A DNA stretch of 64,000 nucleotides from Actinomycetes bacterium (lineage in GTDB: Bacteria; Actinomycetota; Acidimicrobiia; IMCC26256; PALSA-610): assembly GCA_025360585.1 (NCBI GenBank), contig JANYBW010000054.1, positions 25,847 through 89,846 on the forward strand, given 5' to 3'. Below are positions 46,449 through 64,000 of the stretch, piece by piece (within the stretch, counting starts at the first letter, position 1; every line of letters starts with the position of its first letter). The notes under the pieces are model-generated. The model was not told the DNA's origin, made no database searches, and saw nothing but the letters and a program-made list of their open reading frames with translations. The translations under genes were made by a program, and so were the position numbers.

Positions 46449-46979
46449 GTGTCGCTTTCGCCTCCCAACGATTCGCCTCTCAACGATTCGCCTCCCAACG
46501 ATTCGCCTCCCAACGATTCAGGCGATTGGATCTCGCTGACCACCGAACCGCTGCCGCTCATGGCCGCAATCGTTTGGTGCACAACTCCAGATTGCGGCGC
46601 GGTGGTTTCGTTCAGCGGTGTCGTGCGCGACCATGCCGAAGGGCGCCATGATGTTGTTGCGATGACGTACGAAGCCTATGAAGCACCCGCGCTACAGCGG
46701 CTGGCCGAAATTCTTAGCGAGACCCGCAATCGCTGGCCCGACGTCGGCCGGTTGGCGTTGCTGCACCGGCTTGGTGAGCTCGAACTGGGTGAAGCATCGG
46801 TCGTGGTAGTTGCGGCGAGCCCGCATCGCGACGTTGCGTTCGATGCCGGCCGGTTTGCGATCGATACTTTGAAGACTTCCGTACCGATCTGGAAAAAAGA
46901 ACACTTCTCTGGGCAATCAGAGTGGGCACTGCGCTCGAATGATGTGCAATCGGTCCCGACGTCGAGCGTTGGCGACTAA
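46449..46979 (+). CDS. moaE: molybdopterin synthase catalytic subunit MoaE with a repeat-bearing N-terminus
   Basis: GAVVSFSGVVRDH...LLHRLGELELGEASVVVVAASPHR..AF.A.RFAIDTLKTSVPIWKKE. GTG 46449 is the only in-frame canonical start upstream of the conserved ISLTTEPL segment. Confidence 0.8.
   Translation: MSLSPPNDSPLNDSPPNDSPPNDSGDWISLTTEPLPLMAAIVWCTTPDCGAVVSFSGVVRDHAEGRHDVVAMTYEAYEAPALQRLAEILSETRNRWPDVGRLALLHRLGELELGEASVVVVAASPHRDVAFDAGRFAIDTLKTSVPIWKKEHFSGQSEWALRSNDVQSVPTSSVGD
46461..46520. repeat. 4 x 15-bp tandem repeat
   Basis: cctc(c/t)caacgattc(g/a) occurs four times head to tail. It encodes (PPNDS)n in the moaE frame and (ESLGG)n on the opposite strand. Confidence 0.9.
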
Positions 46980-48215: not shown

Positions 48216-48986
48216 TCAGCGGTCGTCGGAGAGATCCTCGGCCGCTTGGCGTACCTGCCAATCACTGTCGGTGAGCGCTTTGGATACGGCCGCGTCCACT
48301 TCAGGTCCGTAGTAGTTCGCGAGCGCGAGGACGGCGCGCCGGCGCACTGCAGGTTTGTCTTGGCAGGCAGCGAGAATGATCGGCAGCGACGTTTCGTGGC
48401 CGATCGAACCGAGCGCGGCAACGGCGGCTTCGCGTACTAACGCGTCGGCATGGTGTTCAGCAATTGCCTCCAACTCCCCGGCGATGCTCGCACTTTCATT
48501 GTGTAGCGCCGCGTCGGCTGGTTCATTGTGTAGCGCCGTGTCGGCACTTTCATTGCATAGCGCCGTTTCGGCGGGGAGTGCCGGTTCTCCCGTGGAGTCC
48601 CCGCCCCGTTCGCCGAGGGCGAAACATGCCGCTTCGGCCACGTAGCCATTGTCATCGTGGGCCAACGAAAAGAGTTCGTCGGCGGCGAGTGTGGCGGAGA
48701 TCTTCGGTGCCAAGCGGGCTGCGGCGAGCCGGACCGGTGGTTCGGGGTCTCCTGCGGCCCGGCGCCAGAGATTCGTGGCCTTCGCCGGGCTGGCTTTGCG
48801 AATTGCTGCGCTGAGCGCCGCGGCCCGGGCCGCCGGTTCGGGGTCGTCGATCACCATGGCTGCGATGGTCGCGAGCGTTCCTGCCGGCCAGCGTTGGGAA
48901 ATTTGGCCCAAGATCGTTGCCGCCGTGGCTCGGGTGCGGGGATTGGGCGATGTGAGGTCCGCGACTGCCTCGTGCACCAATGCCAT
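48216..48986 (-). CDS. HEAT-repeat protein
   Basis: Repeated D(P/S)..VR.AA..ALG helices (NPRTRATAATILG, DPEPAARAAAL, DALVREAAVAALG, DKPAVRRRAVLAL, DSDWQVRQAA). Start taken at MALVHEA (48986). Confidence 0.65.
   Translation of the reverse strand: MALVHEAVADLTSPNPRTRATAATILGQISQRWPAGTLATIAAMVIDDPEPAARAAALSAAIRKASPAKATNLWRRAAGDPEPPVRLAAARLAPKISATLAADELFSLAHDDNGYVAEAACFALGERGGDSTGEPALPAETALCNESADTALHNEPADAALHNESASIAGELEAIAEHHADALVREAAVAALGSIGHETSLPIILAACQDKPAVRRRAVLALANYYGPEVDAAVSKALTDSDWQVRQAAEDLSDDR
48491..48571. repeat. 3 x 27-bp in-frame tandem repeat inside the HEAT-repeat gene
   Basis: c(a/t)(c/g)(t/g)ttcattg(t/c)(g/a)tagcgccg(c/t)(g/t)tcgg occurs three times. It encodes ...TALCNESAD/TALHNEPAD/AALHNESAS. 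Confidence 0.85.
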
Positions 48987-49030
48987 TAGGAGAATCCTAC
49001 AAGGTGGGCTGATGTGTCCGATAGGACAGC

Positions 49031-49792
49031 ATGAAGCGGGCCGGAGTAGCACGAGCCGTCGCGAGCGCCGTTGTCGGTCTGCTCGCGACGGCTTCGCTGA
49101 TTCAGGCCTCAAGCCCCGATTCGTTGCCGGCATTCGGCCGCGCCCAGCGGAAGAATCGCCCGGTCAGTTCAGTTGCAGCAGTAGCGCCCCTCACAACGGC
49201 TGCGATTGGCGCTGCCGGTGGGTCAAGTGAAAAGAGCACCGTCTCGGTGCCCGCGTCGATGCCCACGACTGCGGTTCCCACGATGCCTACCAGTCGTCGT
49301 AAGAAGATGCGCCAAGCGGATCCGCAAGCGAATCGCGAAGTGTTGATCCCGGCTGAGGTACCCGGATCGAACTTCTCGGTTCCGTTGGTTGCCCATGATC
49401 GAATGATCATCGCGAAATTGGGCCTCGATCGCCCCGTATTCGAGGGCATTGCGCAAAACGTCATCGATGCTGGAGTGGCCCATTGGCCCGGCACCGCGAC
49501 CCCTGGCGGTATCGGCAATGTCGTCATCGCTGGTCATCGCAGTACGTACTCGAGGCCGTTCCACGACATCGCGAAGTTGGCGGCTGGAGACACGATTGTT
49601 TTCGAAACCGAGACTCACTGGCGCTACACCTACACAGTCGAGCGTCAGTTCGTGGTTTCGCAAAATGCGTTGTGGATTAGCGATCAGACTGCTGGTCGCC
49701 ACGTAACGATCTTTACGTGTCATCCGATCGGCTCTTCGCGCCAGCGGCTCGTGACTGTGGGTGTTCTTACGAAAACGCAACGGCTCCGCTAG
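49031..49792 (+). CDS. sortase (actinobacterial class E/F-like)
   Basis: Signal/anchor MKRAGVARAVASAVVGLLATASL. Catalytic His (VVIAGHRSTY), Cys (VTIFTCHP) and Arg (RLVTVG) are present. Confidence 0.8.
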   Translation: MKRAGVARAVASAVVGLLATASLIQASSPDSLPAFGRAQRKNRPVSSVAAVAPLTTAAIGAAGGSSEKSTVSVPASMPTTAVPTMPTSRRKKMRQADPQANREVLIPAEVPGSNFSVPLVAHDRMIIAKLGLDRPVFEGIAQNVIDAGVAHWPGTATPGGIGNVVIAGHRSTYSRPFHDIAKLAAGDTIVFETETHWRYTYTVERQFVVSQNALWISDQTAGRHVTIFTCHPIGSSRQRLVTVGVLTKTQRLR

Positions 49793-59321: not shown

Positions 59322-60151
59322 TGACAAACCAATCGCAATTCGAAATCCGAGGCGTCCACGCGACGGTCGCGGGATTCGAAATTCTGCGCGGCGTCGACCT
59401 CACGCTTGGCGGCGGCGAAGTCCACGCGGTGATGGGGCCGAACGGCTGCGGCAAGAGCACCTTGTCGCACACGCTGATGGGTCGCCCTGATTACACCGTA
59501 ACTGCCGGCTCGGCGACGATCGATGGCGTTGAGCTGCTCGGAACTCCTACCTACCGACGCGCACAAGCCGGCCTGTTTCTCGCGATGCAGTACCCGGTTG
59601 AGATCCCTGGCGTCCGTGTCGGCGACCTCGTTGCCGCGGCGCTGACGGCGCGCGGCAGTGAACCGTCAGAAACTCGCCTCAACCTCGAAGCCGAGCGGCT
59701 CGCTGTGCGCGACGAATTCTTGACTCGCGGGGTGAACGACGAGTTTTCGGGGGGCGAAAAGAAACGCGTCGAGACGTTGCAACTCGCGATGTTGCAGCCG
59801 AAGTTCGCGATACTCGATGAAATCGATTCCGGCCTAGACGTTGATGCGTTGCGTGATGTCGCGCGGCGGGTTGTAGCGATGACTCAAGAAGATGGCCTCG
59901 GCGTTTTAGCGATTACGCACTACGCCCGGCTGCTCGAAGAACTCAAACCTGATTTCATTCACGTGATGATGGCTGGTCGTATCGTGGCGAGTGGCGGCCC
60001 AGAAATCGCCGACCGCCTCGAAGCTGTCGGTTACGAAGGGCTCGCGAAAGAACTCGGCGTGACTGAGCTCACCGTGAATAAGCCGGTTGCTTCTGGAAAA
60101 TTTGAAGATCCGACCATCGCTGCCAATCCGTTTGCGGATCCGTTCGCATAG
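59321..60151 (+). CDS. sufC: Fe-S cluster assembly ATPase SufC
   Basis: GPNGCGKSTL, FSGGEKKR and ILDEIDSGLDVDAL. Confidence 0.95.
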   Translation: MTNQSQFEIRGVHATVAGFEILRGVDLTLGGGEVHAVMGPNGCGKSTLSHTLMGRPDYTVTAGSATIDGVELLGTPTYRRAQAGLFLAMQYPVEIPGVRVGDLVAAALTARGSEPSETRLNLEAERLAVRDEFLTRGVNDEFSGGEKKRVETLQLAMLQPKFAILDEIDSGLDVDALRDVARRVVAMTQEDGLGVLAITHYARLLEELKPDFIHVMMAGRIVASGGPEIADRLEAVGYEGLAKELGVTELTVNKPVASGKFEDPTIAANPFADPFA

Positions 60152-60160
60152 TTTGTCGGC

Positions 60161-60688
60161 ATGCGGGGGGTGATCTCGACCAGCGAACGCGTGGCTTTGT
60201 GTTCGGTATCGAATCGCGATCGTGACGAATTTTTAAGCGCCGTGGCGCGCAGCGGTGGGGTACATCGACCTTGGGTATTCGCCCCAACGACTCGGGCGCA
60301 GTGGGCTGCATATTCCCGCAAAGCTCATGCAGATGATGCGCGCGCAATGTTGATCCGCCGCCGCGAAGACGGCGCACTTGCGGGCGTGATCAACCTCAAC
60401 AACATCATCGGCGGTGGACTACAACAAGCCTTCGTGGGTTACTACGCGCTCGATCCATTCTTCGGCCACGGTTATATGAGCGAAGGCCTGCGCTTGGTGA
60501 TTGAACACGCCTTCGTCGATCTTCGTTTACACCGGCTTGAAGCGAACATTCAACCCGGCAACGAGCCATCAAAACGCCTCGCCGCGGCGGTTGGGTTTCG
60601 TTGCGAGGGCTTCTCGCCCCGGTATCTCCAAGTGGGCGGAGAATGGCGCGATCACGAACGTTGGGCCCGCATCAGCGACGATACCTGA
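60161..60688 (+). CDS. GNAT-family N-acetyltransferase (RimJ/RimL-like)
   Basis: GHGYMSEGLRLVIEHAF..L.LHRLEANIQPGNEPSKRLAAAVGFRCEG. Confidence 0.8.
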   Translation: MRGVISTSERVALCSVSNRDRDEFLSAVARSGGVHRPWVFAPTTRAQWAAYSRKAHADDARAMLIRRREDGALAGVINLNNIIGGGLQQAFVGYYALDPFFGHGYMSEGLRLVIEHAFVDLRLHRLEANIQPGNEPSKRLAAAVGFRCEGFSPRYLQVGGEWRDHERWARISDDT

Positions 60689-60710
60689 GTTGCTCGTCTT
60701 GGCGTGCCGC

Positions 60711-60780
60711 TCTTGACAGGTGGTTCTTGACAGGTAGTTCTTGACAGGTAGTTCTTGACGAGTAGTTCTTGACAGGTAGT
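60711..60780. repeat. 5 x 14-bp tandem repeat, each unit containing TTGACA
   Basis: TCTTGACAGGTGGT, TCTTGACAGGTAGT twice, TCTTGACGAGTAGT, TCTTGACAGGTAGT, arranged head to tail. Confidence 0.92.
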
Positions 60781-60803
60781 TACTGAGTATATATACTGAG
60801 TAA
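60769..60803 (+). promoter_or_regulatory. predicted padR promoter (TTGACA-N17-TATACT) with an overlapping palindrome; probable leaderless transcript
   Basis: -35 TTGACA at 60769-60774 and -10 TATACT at 60792-60797. The padR ATG A (60804) is 7 nt after the -10 and has no Shine-Dalgarno sequence. A 12-bp perfect palindrome AGTATATATACT lies at 60787-60798, inside the direct repeat TACTGAGTA-TATA-TACTGAGTA. Confidence 0.55.
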
Positions 60804-61409
60804 ATGGCAGTGCGTGAAGGGTTGTTAGCCCTGCTCAACCGGGGTCCGGCTCACGGATTTCAGTTGAAGCATGATTTCGAGGCGGCAACGGGTCAAGCCT
60901 GGCCGTTGAACGTTGGGCAGGTGTACACGACCCTCGATCGGCTCGAACGCGATGCGTTGGTGACGGTCGGCGGCGACCCTGAAACCGACGGACGGAGCCA
61001 GCCCGGCCAGAAGCTGTATGAACTCACCGCGGCCGGGCGCGAAGCGCTCAGTGCCTGGTGGAACGAGCTCCCAGCCGACGATCCTCCGCCGCGCGACGAG
61101 CTGATGCTCAAACTCCTATTTGCTATCGACGCCGGGCGCGAACACGCGCTGCGAGTCATCACGGAACATCGAAGCGCGATGTTTTCAGTCCTCCAAGCGC
61201 GGCGACGGGCCGCGACCCCGACCGACATCGCCAGTCACCTTGTCCACGACGCCTTGATCGTGCGCGCTGAAGCCGATCTGCGTTGGCTCGACATGTGCGA
61301 GGCCCGAATGCTGCGCGTCGCACCGTCGTCAACGAACGCGACCACGAACCACACGTCTCGTGAATCGTCCAACCCATCGTCCAACGCACCGTCCAATCGG
61401 GGAGATTGA
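60804..61409 (+). CDS. PadR-family transcriptional regulator
   Basis: LLALLNRGPAHGFQLKHDF...WPLNVGQVYTTLDRLERDALV is a PadR winged helix. Confidence 0.87.
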   Translation: MAVREGLLALLNRGPAHGFQLKHDFEAATGQAWPLNVGQVYTTLDRLERDALVTVGGDPETDGRSQPGQKLYELTAAGREALSAWWNELPADDPPPRDELMLKLLFAIDAGREHALRVITEHRSAMFSVLQARRRAATPTDIASHLVHDALIVRAEADLRWLDMCEARMLRVAPSSTNATTNHTSRESSNPSSNAPSNRGD

Positions 61410-61415
61410 GATTCC

Positions 61416-62159
61416 ATGAACGCAATTCTTGAATTTGATGACGTGGTGAAGAGCTACGGCTCAGGGCCCTCGGAAGTACGGGCGCTGAAAGGTGTGTCGC
61501 TATGCGTCGAACCCGGCGAGTTCATCGCGATCATGGGTCCGAGCGGCTGCGGCAAGAGCACCGTGCTGCACCTCGGTGGCGCGCTCGAGGAACCGAGTGC
61601 AGGACGCGTACTGGTCGACGGCCGCAACATCGGTTCGCTCGGCGCGGCCGAGCGCAGTCTGTTGCGGCGCCGCGACGTTGGTTACGTGTTTCAACGGTTG
61701 AATCTGATCCCTGCGTTGAGCGCGCTCGAAAACGTGATGCTGCCGCTCGAAATTGATGGCGTGCGGACGCGTGATGCCAAGCACCGTGCCATGGAAGCAT
61801 TGGCTCGCGTGGGTCTAGAACAACGAATTGATCGCTATCCCGACGATTTCTCCGGCGGTCAACAACAGCGCATCGCGATTGCCCGAGCGATTGTTGGAAA
61901 GCGACGGTTGCTACTCGCCGACGAACCGACGGGCGCACTCGACACGCTGAGCAGCGATGAAATCATTGAAGTTTTGAGTTTGTTGCCCAAAGACACAGGA
62001 ACTGCGGTAGTTCTCGTCACGCACGAACCGCGATTCGCGAGCTGGGCTGATCGCGTGGTGTTCTTGCGCGACGGCCGCGTGGTCGGTGAGTCGGGAGCAA
62101 CCTCCGGATCGACCAGCGCCTCGGCGGGCGCGACTCTCGCGCCGGGTGTGGTGGCCTGA
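61416..62159 (+). CDS. ABC transporter ATP-binding protein (MacB/LolD/FtsE-like)
   Basis: [23 protein letters not shown] and LLLADEPTGALD. Confidence 0.9.
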   Translation: MNAILEFDDVVKSYGSGPSEVRALKGVSLCVEPGEFIAIMGPSGCGKSTVLHLGGALEEPSAGRVLVDGRNIGSLGAAERSLLRRRDVGYVFQRLNLIPALSALENVMLPLEIDGVRTRDAKHRAMEALARVGLEQRIDRYPDDFSGGQQQRIAIARAIVGKRRLLLADEPTGALDTLSSDEIIEVLSLLPKDTGTAVVLVTHEPRFASWADRVVFLRDGRVVGESGATSGSTSASAGATLAPGVVA

Positions 62160-62161
62160 TC

Positions 62162-64000
62162 ATGATGAGCCAATGGAGATTTGCTTCGCGGCTCGCTCGT
62201 CGTGAAGTGCAACGGAGACCAGGGCGCACCGTCTTGGTCATGCTGCTCATTGCTCTGCCAATTGCCGCAATGGTTTTTGCATCAGTGTCCTATCGCACCA
62301 GCCAAGACGGCGCGAGCGAAAAATTCACCCGCCGCTTCGGGGCTGCCGACTATGCAATCGAAAACGCGGCGACACCGACGGATATTGCAACGTTTCCTAC
62401 CGGAACTCGGGTGTTGCGCAGCGCCGAGGTGACCGTTGGCGTGCTGCCCACCGACTCGCTTCCGGCGGGCTGGACGATGGTGTCGAATTTGGATCTCGGC
62501 GATCCGATGACGCGCGGGATGTTTCGCATGGATTCGGGCCGTGCGCCACGCGCGGCTGGCGAAATCGTGTTGACTCGTACCCTCGCCCGGGCGTGGCACG
62601 CGCAGCCAGGCACGAAGCTCCAGTGGCGTCGCCCACAGGGCGCGTTCACCGTCGTGGGTGTCGGTGTTGCGGTCGATAATTTCCGAAGCGAAATCGTGTT
62701 TGTTGCGGGTGCAGTCGAGCAAGTTGTGGCTGCGAGCGATGAGCGCCCCGGCGCAATATCAGTGAATTACACCGATCGCATCGATGTGCCCGGTGTTCCG
62801 ACGAGCGCCGACGCGTTGCGACAGTTCGCACATCACACCGCGGGTGCGTTGCAATACAGCGATCGGTACGGCCATCCGGGAAGCACCAAGGTGAAAGTCG
62901 CGGCGATCGCGTGGGGTTGGGTTGTCGGTGCGCTGTTGCTTGGAATTGTCGGCATCATTGTCTCCGCTGCGTTTGCGACGAGCGCACGCCGTCAACTTGT
63001 CACGCTCGGGCAACTGGCTGCGAATGGATCTCCGGAACGGCTCATGCGTAGGACCATGGTCTTGCAGGGGGCATGGAGCGGGGTGTACGGCAGCGGCTTG
63101 GGCCTCGTCGCTGGTGCAGCACTCTTGATCAGCGGCCGAGATCAAATTGAATCGTTGACCCGCCACGAGATTGGCCCGTACCAATGGGGGCCAGCACTGT
63201 TGGCGATCATCGTCGTGACCGGAGTGATTGCGGCAATGACTGCCGCCTGGTTTCCGGCCCGCAGCGCCGCGAAAGTCTCGGTGCTCAGCGCGCTCGCCGG
63301 ACGGCGCCCGATGAAATCGGTGCCGAAACGAATGGTGCCAATTGGCGCCGGGCTTTTTGGCTCCGGGATCTTGATCCTCGCCCTCGTAGCCGCTGCGGCG
63401 AAGAGCGGGAGCGGCAACGCCGCCGCCGCCGCCGCCGTGCTTGGTGGTGTGTTGGTGTTGGCGGGTGCTTGTTGCGTGAGTCCGGCCATCGTGTCGATAC
63501 TCGAACCCCTCGCCGCTCGAATCGGCGGCGCGGCTCGGGTGGCGGCGCGCAGCGTTGGCCGGGCGCGCGCTCGGAGCGCGGCGGTCGTCACCGCGTTGGC
63601 CGTTGCGAGTGCGATCGCGGTGGCCTCGGGAACGGTCGTGGCTTCGCGCTGGCCCGATGAAAAAAACCAACTTCCGTATTTGCCGCGCAACGTCGTTGAA
63701 ATTCAGCACTTTTTGTCGCCGGCAACGGAACCGTCTTCGGAATTACGCAGCTCCGAGCAGTTTGGCGCCGTTCCGGCTTCAGTGTGGTCGCGGTTCGCCG
63801 CTGTTCTTCCCGCGGCGAAGTGGGTGCCGCAGCATCACGCAGAAGTTTCGCCCAAGTCGATTGATCCCGGACGAGTTGGAACTCGGGCTGAGTCTGATTT
63901 GATCCAGAACGGTTATGTCTTGGTCGCCGACTCACGTGTACTTGCGGCACTGCACATCTCGGCGCGCGATCAGGCTGCACTGCAAACCGTTGGTGTCATG
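62162..64000 (+). CDS. FtsX-family ABC transporter permease (3' end lies outside the window)
   Basis: Absent from the ORF track because it has no stop in the window. I translated it from ATG 62162 and the frame stays open for all 613 codons to position 64000. It begins MMSQWRFASRLARREVQRRPGRTVLVMLLIALPIAAMVF and contains the FtsX motif region WFPARSAAKVSVLSALAGR. Confidence 0.8.
   Translation, partial: MMSQWRFASRLARREVQRRPGRTVLVMLLIALPIAAMVFASVSYRTSQDGASEKFTRRFGAADYAIENAATPTDIATFPTGTRVLRSAEVTVGVLPTDSLPAGWTMVSNLDLGDPMTRGMFRMDSGRAPRAAGEIVLTRTLARAWHAQPGTKLQWRRPQGAFTVVGVGVAVDNFRSEIVFVAGAVEQVVAASDERPGAISVNYTDRIDVPGVPTSADALRQFAHHTAGALQYSDRYGHPGSTKVKVAAIAWGWVVGALLLGIVGIIVSAAFATSARRQLVTLGQLAANGSPERLMRRTMVLQGAWSGVYGSGLGLVAGAALLISGRDQIESLTRHEIGPYQWGPALLAIIVVTGVIAAMTAAWFPARSAAKVSVLSALAGRRPMKSVPKRMVPIGAGLFGSGILILALVAAAAKSGSGNAAAAAAVLGGVLVLAGACCVSPAIVSILEPLAARIGGAARVAARSVGRARARSAAVVTALAVASAIAVASGTVVASRWPDEKNQLPYLPRNVVEIQHFLSPATEPSSELRSSEQFGAVPASVWSRFAAVLPAAKWVPQHHAEVSPKSIDPGRVGTRAESDLIQNGYVLVADSRVLAALHISARDQAALQTVGVM

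Follow-up and report, generated by a model that had tools for sequence, protein, structure and literature searches.

Introduction

Classical phase-variable promoters change the spacing between the -35 and -10 hexamers, or the distance or phase of a regulator site. In Haemophilus and Neisseria, TA repeats lie between the -35 and -10 of hifA/hifB, poly-G or poly-C tracts occupy the spacer of porA/opc, and TAAA repeats lie upstream of nadA. In Mycobacterium tuberculosis, promoter repeats have been described as VNTR3690 (lpdA), as QUB15 (cysG-efpA) and as a duplication of the dop promoter, and their copy number varies by slippage both within and between strains (PMC12817950). The M. tuberculosis units are 54-58 bp long and are described as whole promoters, of which extra copies can add activity (PMC12817950).

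Here we analyse a tandem array of 14-bp units that precedes a padR gene in high-GC Acidimicrobiia DNA, within a stretch of 64,000 nucleotides (hereafter the window). Judged by architecture, the promoter tandem repeats of M. tuberculosis are the nearest analogue of this array: both are actinobacterial, and the M. tuberculosis repeats also sit head to tail immediately upstream of leaderless genes, one of which is efflux-linked. Unlike the M. tuberculosis repeats, the unit in the window is 14 bp long and holds a -35 only, the extra copies come without a -10, and variation in copy number is deduced indirectly. With the Haemophilus and Neisseria promoters the locus shares slippage-prone short repeats within or beside a promoter; unlike them, each unit takes in the -35 and the repeat stops at the operator, the spacing stays constant, and there is no conserved upstream partner site.

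The second component of the locus, a PadR regulator with a predicted operator, has precedents. PadR repressors autoregulate and control ABC pumps, as in LmrR-lmrCD (PMC4534193). The operator of Bacillus subtilis PadR at padC reads CNTGNA-N6-TNCANG (PMC5728393), and the half-sites of B. subtilis PadR and LmrR differ from TACT/AGTA. Gel-shift assays showed binding of C. difficile PadR1 (cdPadR1) to inverted TACT/AGTA repeats whose centre is A+T-rich (PMC5050560). The predicted operator in the window has the same half-sites. In common with LmrR, cdPadR1 and B. subtilis PadR, the locus combines a winged-helix PadR, a predicted palindromic operator over its own promoter and linkage to an ABC exporter. 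Unlike the known PadR systems, it has a tandem pair of 11-bp palindromes at a 13-bp distance, which also serve as the -10, and a predicted leaderless mRNA; unlike LmrR-lmrCD, its pump is of the MacB/FtsX type and not of the LmrCD type. We class the regulator-operator pair as a usual PadR autorepression arrangement whose half-site departs from the canonical one but has a precedent. In leaderless mRNAs of Actinomycetota, the -10 lies 6-7 nt upstream of the ATG and no Shine-Dalgarno sequence is present; the arrangement at padR is the same and has nothing unusual about it. Leaderless actinobacterial mRNAs are also mentioned in PMC12817950.

Results

A 14-bp unit carrying a -35 hexamer is repeated five times upstream of padR

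Tandem Repeats Finder reports a repeat at 60711-60781 with a period of 14, 5.1 copies, 91% matches and a score of 121, and ranks it as the top-scoring repeat of the 64-kb window (Table 1). The five tandem TTGACA-containing units of the preliminary description are thus recovered. The two single-base variants that it had also listed have to be corrected, as there are three base differences spread over units 1 and 4. Relative to the predicted start, the TTGAC cores of the five units lie at -91, -77, -63, -49 and -35. A search for the unit with up to three mismatches returned the five head-to-tail matches and one match elsewhere in the window (at 48358, with 3 mismatches), and six or more matches were obtained in 0 of 100 shuffles. 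The single outlying match is at chance level, and a dispersed repeat family was discarded.

Because three substitutions have accumulated between the units, the array is not brand-new. Retention of TTGAC in all five units is not significant: with 20 core positions among 56, all three hits would spare the core by chance with a probability of about 0.27. We also considered a sixth, degenerate unit at 60697-60710, which matches the unit at 8 of 14 positions. We treated it as flank, the region opening with GTTGCTCGT as it does in the single-copy relative L002, and it is probably ancestral flank.

Table 1. Positions of the array, promoter, predicted operator and genes in the window, and of the Logan contig boundaries that fall within the array.
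Feature	Position	Strand	Details	Basis
Tandem array	60711..60780	+	five head-to-tail 14-bp units, TCTTGACAGGTAGT	Tandem Repeats Finder, Logan contigs
Array unit 1	60711..60724		GGTGGT variant (one substitution, GGTAGT to GGTGGT)	
Array unit 2	60725..60738		consensus	
Array unit 3	60739..60752		consensus	
Array unit 4	60753..60766		CGAG variant (two adjacent substitutions, CAGG to CGAG)	
Array unit 5	60767..60780		consensus; holds the predicted functional -35	
Predicted functional -35	60769..60774	+	TTGACA, within unit 5; 17-nt spacer to -10	
-10 hexamer	60792..60797	+	TATACT; first half of predicted operator site 2	promoter scan
Predicted PadR operator site 1	60780..60790	.	TTACTGAGTAT; 11-bp palindrome N-TAC-N3-GTA-N; 14.9-15.5 bits	
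Predicted PadR operator site 2	60793..60803	.	ATACTGAGTAA; 15.0-15.5 bits; overlaps -10, abuts start codon	
GNAT acetyltransferase	60161..60688	+	outside the module; left edge of the 115-bp intergenic region	
padR	60804..61409	+	201 aa, two-domain PadR	Pfam PF03551, PF10400
ABC ATPase	61416..62159	+	MacB/LolD type; 6 nt after padR	
FtsX-domain permease	62162..64000	+	runs off the window; 868 aa in identical contig L001	
Contig boundaries, SRR23617308	60735 (end), 60730 (start)			
Contig boundary, SRR20627846	60773 (end)			
Contig boundary, SRR23617167	60752 (end)			

The other strong repeats of the window are coding and in frame, and a genome-wide habit of non-coding repeats was accordingly set aside. 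One of them, at 46457-46519 (15 bp, 4.2 copies, 95% matches), is found at the 5' end of a MoaE ORF (46449-46979), where it codes for (SPPND)x4; the MoaE domain follows from residue 31. The other, at 48490-48572 (27 bp, 3.1 copies), lies in a gene for a HEAT-repeat protein on the minus strand (48216-49133). Within the array itself, the unit 4 variant yields GAGTAG, resembling GAGTAT of the operator, and its minus strand reads GAAC-N18-CGTC, loosely like an ECF-sigma promoter; both resemblances are probably due to chance. A minus-strand ORF of 89 aa (60569-60838) spans the array and overlaps the ends of two conserved genes, and was treated as spurious.

The last unit supplies the -35 of a near-consensus promoter with a predicted leaderless start

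A promoter scan of 59800-62000 found one strong sigma-70-type site, TTGACA-17-TATACT, with 11 of 12 matches. Among the five units, only the last TTGACA sits 17 bp from TATACT, as the preliminary description had stated of a near-consensus promoter with a single correctly spaced copy. Six nucleotides separate the -10 from the padR ATG (60804-60806), the A being the seventh base after the -10, and no Shine-Dalgarno sequence precedes it.

This arrangement recurs in the orthologs. Of 80 loci, 45 have the start codon at most 2 nt from the end of operator site 2. A leader of 7-51 nt is present in the remaining 35, with a GGAG-like Shine-Dalgarno sequence in 25 of them, and in the leadered orthologs the Shine-Dalgarno sequence precedes the codon homologous to the window ATG. 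Both the split between leaderless and leadered loci and the placement of the Shine-Dalgarno sequence favour 60804 as the genuine start ATG and a leaderless mRNA. The A of this ATG as predicted transcription start, and with it the leaderless padR mRNA proposed earlier, is therefore supported at the level of sequence. In the 45 leaderless loci (the window counted), the homologous -10 is CATACT in 36 and TATACT in 7, and relatives have TTGAC at the homologous -35 place, 28 of the 45 matching the hexamer in at least five of six positions at a spacing of 16-18 nt.

Automatic gene calls for padR and its relatives place the start at a GTG two codons past the conserved ATG (window 60804-60812; L001 position 81; L002 position 3001). 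A leaderless start without a ribosome-binding site is the likely cause. Database PadR proteins are consequently 2 aa short, and for this reason an exact-sequence look-up of the 201-aa product found nothing.

TATACT can also be read on the minus strand at 60786-60791, because the operator is palindromic. Transcription from that hexamer would cross the array in antisense direction and reach the 3' end of the GNAT gene. As a divergent promoter the mirrored TATACT was rejected, since it has no -35 partner.

Two palindromes over the promoter form a predicted PadR operator

The promoter is overlapped by two palindromic sites that start 13 bp apart and together overlap the spacer and the -10. With an operator motif model built from 161 sites (maximum score 19.7 bits), scores above 14 bits occur in the whole 64 kb at 60780 and 60793 only. 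The 12-bp perfect palindrome AGTATATATACT (60786-60797) and the direct repeat TACTGAGTA-TATA-TACTGAGTA (60781-60802) are present as first described, and the 24-bp stretch 60780-60803 as a whole is a 92% inverted repeat over spacer, -10 and start. The regulator's own promoter is thus overlapped by a palindromic operator candidate.

Sites of the form A-TAC-N3-GTA-T were found in 79 orthologous loci, from Acidimicrobiia to Streptomyces, with exactly two sites in 65 of the 79, and the modal start-to-start spacing in the relatives is 13 bp (46 spacings), as in the window. The canonical operator ATGT-N8-10-ACAT was also searched for, and neither ATGT nor ACAT occurs anywhere in 60689-60803; the half-sites read TAC/GTA and come nearest to TACT/AGTA of cdPadR1. 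Together with the half-sites of cdPadR1 (PMC5050560), the two-site motif of the 79 loci supports the earlier suggestion that TACTGAGTA-TATA-TACTGAGTA is a PadR operator, and the two palindromes are well supported as its predicted sites. A text search for the operator motif strings found no relevant paper.

The promoter belongs to a conserved padR-ABC-FtsX module

The padR product has an N-terminal winged-helix PadR domain (PF03551, 60.1 bits, cut-off 27) and a C-terminal dimerisation domain (PF10400, 29.8 bits, cut-off 22.4), which place it in the PadR family, subfamily 1. Its closest solved structures are AphA, VanR-like proteins and B. subtilis PadR. Among 82 related loci, the ABC ATPase lies directly downstream of padR in 79 and a homologous FtsX-type permease is found downstream in 42 (E<=1e-10). 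On the upstream side, the GNAT gene closes a SufB-SufD-Rieske-SufC cluster and is a neighbour common only to the window and L002. The downstream ABC/FtsX genes being conserved and GNAT kept only in L002, the module travels with its own promoter. The best PadR relatives come from Ilumatobacteraceae, Microthrixaceae and Acidimicrobiales MAGs.

The array is private to one strain

Relatives were collected as nearest homologs via a protein database and contigs, and as 80 loci from a species-representative genome collection, none of the latter closer than 66% identity. By PadR identity, the nearest are L002 (79%, with the same Suf-GNAT synteny) and L004 (75%). The upstream region of L002 reads cTTGACTttacttACTCAGTATATATACTGAGTAtATG, with a single TTGACT; that of L004 is similar, also with a single TTGACT. 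In L009, the single-copy string TTGACAGGTGGTTACTGAGTAT is exactly unit 1 joined to the operator. The design shared by the relatives is one TTGAC-type -35 followed by two 11-bp palindromes.

The array is absent from 81 of 81 relatives, L002 and L004 included. None of them has more than two TTGAC in 150 nt, compared with five in the window, and Tandem Repeats Finder detected in the 81 upstream regions only duplication of the operator and no repeat that includes the -35. The intergenic gap measures 115 bp in the window and about 44 bp in the syntenic L002, mostly because the four extra units amount to 56 bp. In JGI metagenomes the operator was matched 12 times, and a close relative was not among the matches. 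On these sequence comparisons, we regard the promoter/operator core as old and conserved across Actinomycetota, and the array as private to one strain and recent. Since the array is found in one strain only, its neutrality is not something that evolutionary persistence can be used to judge.

Contig ends suggest that copy number varies

Logan contigs L001, L097, L098 and L099, from three sequencing runs, match the array at 100% identity. L098 spans units 1-4 and part of unit 5, L001 begins within unit 2 and continues across unit 5 and the operator, and contigs of different runs overlap by 44 nt and jointly cover the whole array at 100% identity. All four contig ends at the locus lie within the 70-bp array (Table 1), and the flanks are contiguous for 1-8 kb.

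We compared these ends with a k=31 de Bruijn simulation, in which the window haplotype alone assembles straight through; it does so cleanly because the unit variants make every 30-mer unique. With g for the unit-1 variant, c for the consensus and d for the unit-4 variant, the window reads g-c-c-d-c. The simulated haplotype g-c-c-c-d-c gives ends at 60752 and 60730; mixed with the window haplotype, g-g-c-c-c-d-c gives 60735 and 60730, and g-c-c-d-d-c gives 60773. The observed ends were reproduced only with variant haplotypes, including ones that are one or two units longer, and same-length variants explain some of the ends. Part of the pattern could also stem from library artefacts or from a co-occurring strain that differs by point variants. 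The pattern suggests that the array is polymorphic in nature, an indirect reading taken from contig ends. No second strain with a copy-number variant was found in the genome collection (80 loci), in JGI metagenomes or in the Logan look-ups, which returned same-strain contigs only, 100% identical to the window.

Consequences of extra units for the promoter

TTGACA-17-TATACT is kept at any copy number, because each unit brings its own -35 and the array runs right up to the operator. The array had been proposed to be a slippage-prone element that changes promoter geometry. The contig ends and the simulation lend indirect support to the first part; the second part fails, the same geometry always being restored. 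Compared with VNTR and contingency loci, the array shares the location of the repeats in the promoter region; altered spacing and added complete promoters are absent. Beyond two units, a change in copy number affects only sequence farther upstream than about -63.

None of the four upstream hexamers is followed at 15-20 nt by a -10 partner, the best candidate matching 3 of 6 positions and none fitting TANNNT, and without such a partner the upstream units were ruled out as extra promoters. PadR binding to the array was rejected as well, as the operator motif model gives nothing of at least 2 bits in 60690-60779. The upstream units do put DNA of 57% A+T in place of the GC-rich flank at -40 to -60, where the alpha subunits of polymerase bind, and may thereby have a moderate effect on promoter strength.

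The RNA fold of the region is unremarkable relative to shuffles (z = -1.14). An RNA element in a read-through transcript was dismissed on this value and on a sole Rfam hit, mir-205, that scores 22.5 bits against a gathering threshold of 55 and that we attribute to chance.

Discussion

We hold it to be probable, with moderate confidence, that a -35-bearing 14-bp piece was multiplied by slippage in front of a conserved, self-repressed, leaderless padR-ABC-FtsX operon, and that the locus is not a new regulatory device. The array would then be a recent promoter VNTR, probably an unstable product of slippage. From spacing and conservation, RNA polymerase with the principal sigma factor would use TTGACA (60769) and TATACT (60792) and start at A60804. 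PadR dimers on both palindromes (60780-60790 and 60793-60803) would prevent initiation by covering the spacer, the -10 and the start, and a ligand, presumably a substrate of the pump, would release PadR; for both steps we draw on family behaviour and motif conservation. The four upstream units would be passengers, with neither a -10 partner nor a PadR site. In-register gain or loss of units would regenerate the same core promoter, which follows directly from the sequence, and because of this the array would be tolerated and free to drift in copy number. We expect the extra units to influence expression little, if at all.

An adaptive role for the array is possible, although we consider it unlikely. 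The extra -35 boxes or the A+T-richer DNA would recruit or trap polymerase in cis, and the array would be a contingency locus that generates subpopulations. There are indirect signs of copy-number heterogeneity in three sequencing runs, and four of the twelve TTGACA hexamers that the window has on both strands lie in the array. In addition, the M. tuberculosis promoter repeats at lpdA and cysG-efpA vary and are proposed to alter promoter strength (PMC12817950). Against such tuning, the -35 to -10 spacing is intact and changes fall mostly beyond -63; the upstream units are without -10 partners, unlike the whole-promoter repeats of M. tuberculosis; and the absence of the array from all 81 relatives gives no sign of long-term selection. 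A sink for sigma factor, as first proposed, is also unlikely: with 12 TTGACA in the window alone, four more cannot titrate sigma in trans. A more specific version, to which we give a rather low probability, is that slippage varies the number of non-initiating spare -35 boxes around a constant core, and that trapping or handover of polymerase in cis grades pump expression in subpopulations; the array would then be a promoter contingency element of a new kind.

It is still less probable that the repeats bind another regulator, such as a response regulator or another activator that recognises direct repeats, and provide a second input to the padR promoter. The near identity of the units would fit such a role, as would their position, direct repeats upstream of and overlapping the -35 being the usual place of a class II activator. 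Several results speak against it. The 14-bp period sets neighbouring units about 120 degrees apart on the helix; activator platforms and iterons have a phasing of about 10.5 or 21 bp and are conserved in orthologs, and here the period is off the helical repeat and the sites are conserved in none of the 81 relatives, though the module is conserved across the phylum. The multi-site activator platform suggested in the preliminary description is unlikely for these reasons. Moreover, the unit is absent elsewhere in the 64 kb save for the chance-level match with 3 mismatches, and a promoter that is already 11/12 consensus should need no activator. An assembly artefact, in the array or in its copy number, is very improbable: the short-read assemblies of three runs do all break inside it, but the 70-bp array is shorter than typical reads, its 30-mers are all unique so that the window haplotype assembles cleanly in simulation, and the overlapping contigs of different runs reproduce it at 100% identity.

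Seen as a slippage product, the array illustrates that a short tandem repeat can expand inside a promoter that stays unbroken, because the unit carries the -35 along. If copy number does affect expression, the locus would be a case of promoter phase variation that does not depend on spacing, in an uncultured actinobacterial lineage from the environment. The comparison across loci yields the firmer result: a phylum-wide cis-design of padR-ABC-FtsX loci, in which the palindromes supply the -10 and about half of the loci are leaderless. This design offers a ready operator model for the large uncharacterised group of actinobacterial PadR proteins and may outweigh the array in usefulness.

The cis-module was observed before padR-ABC(-FtsX) from Acidimicrobiia to Streptomyces and Nocardioides (L002-L084), for example at 2930-3003 of L012 and 2940-3003 of L065, the counterpart in the window being 60780-60803. 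One Mycobacteriales MAG (L038, 2906-2958) has the 13-bp operator unit in four tandem copies and not in two, so units of 13-14 bp have been tandemly duplicated more than once within this promoter family. In low-GC contigs from JGI metagenomes (L085-L088 and L092), a near-identical operator, TATACTCAGTATATATACTGAGTATA, adjoins TTGACA, and in several of them it lies just upstream of an ORF that starts with MLPY, which we read as a putative PadR-like N-terminus. From these sequences, the TACT/AGTA type of operator appears to be shared by bacteria well outside Actinomycetota.
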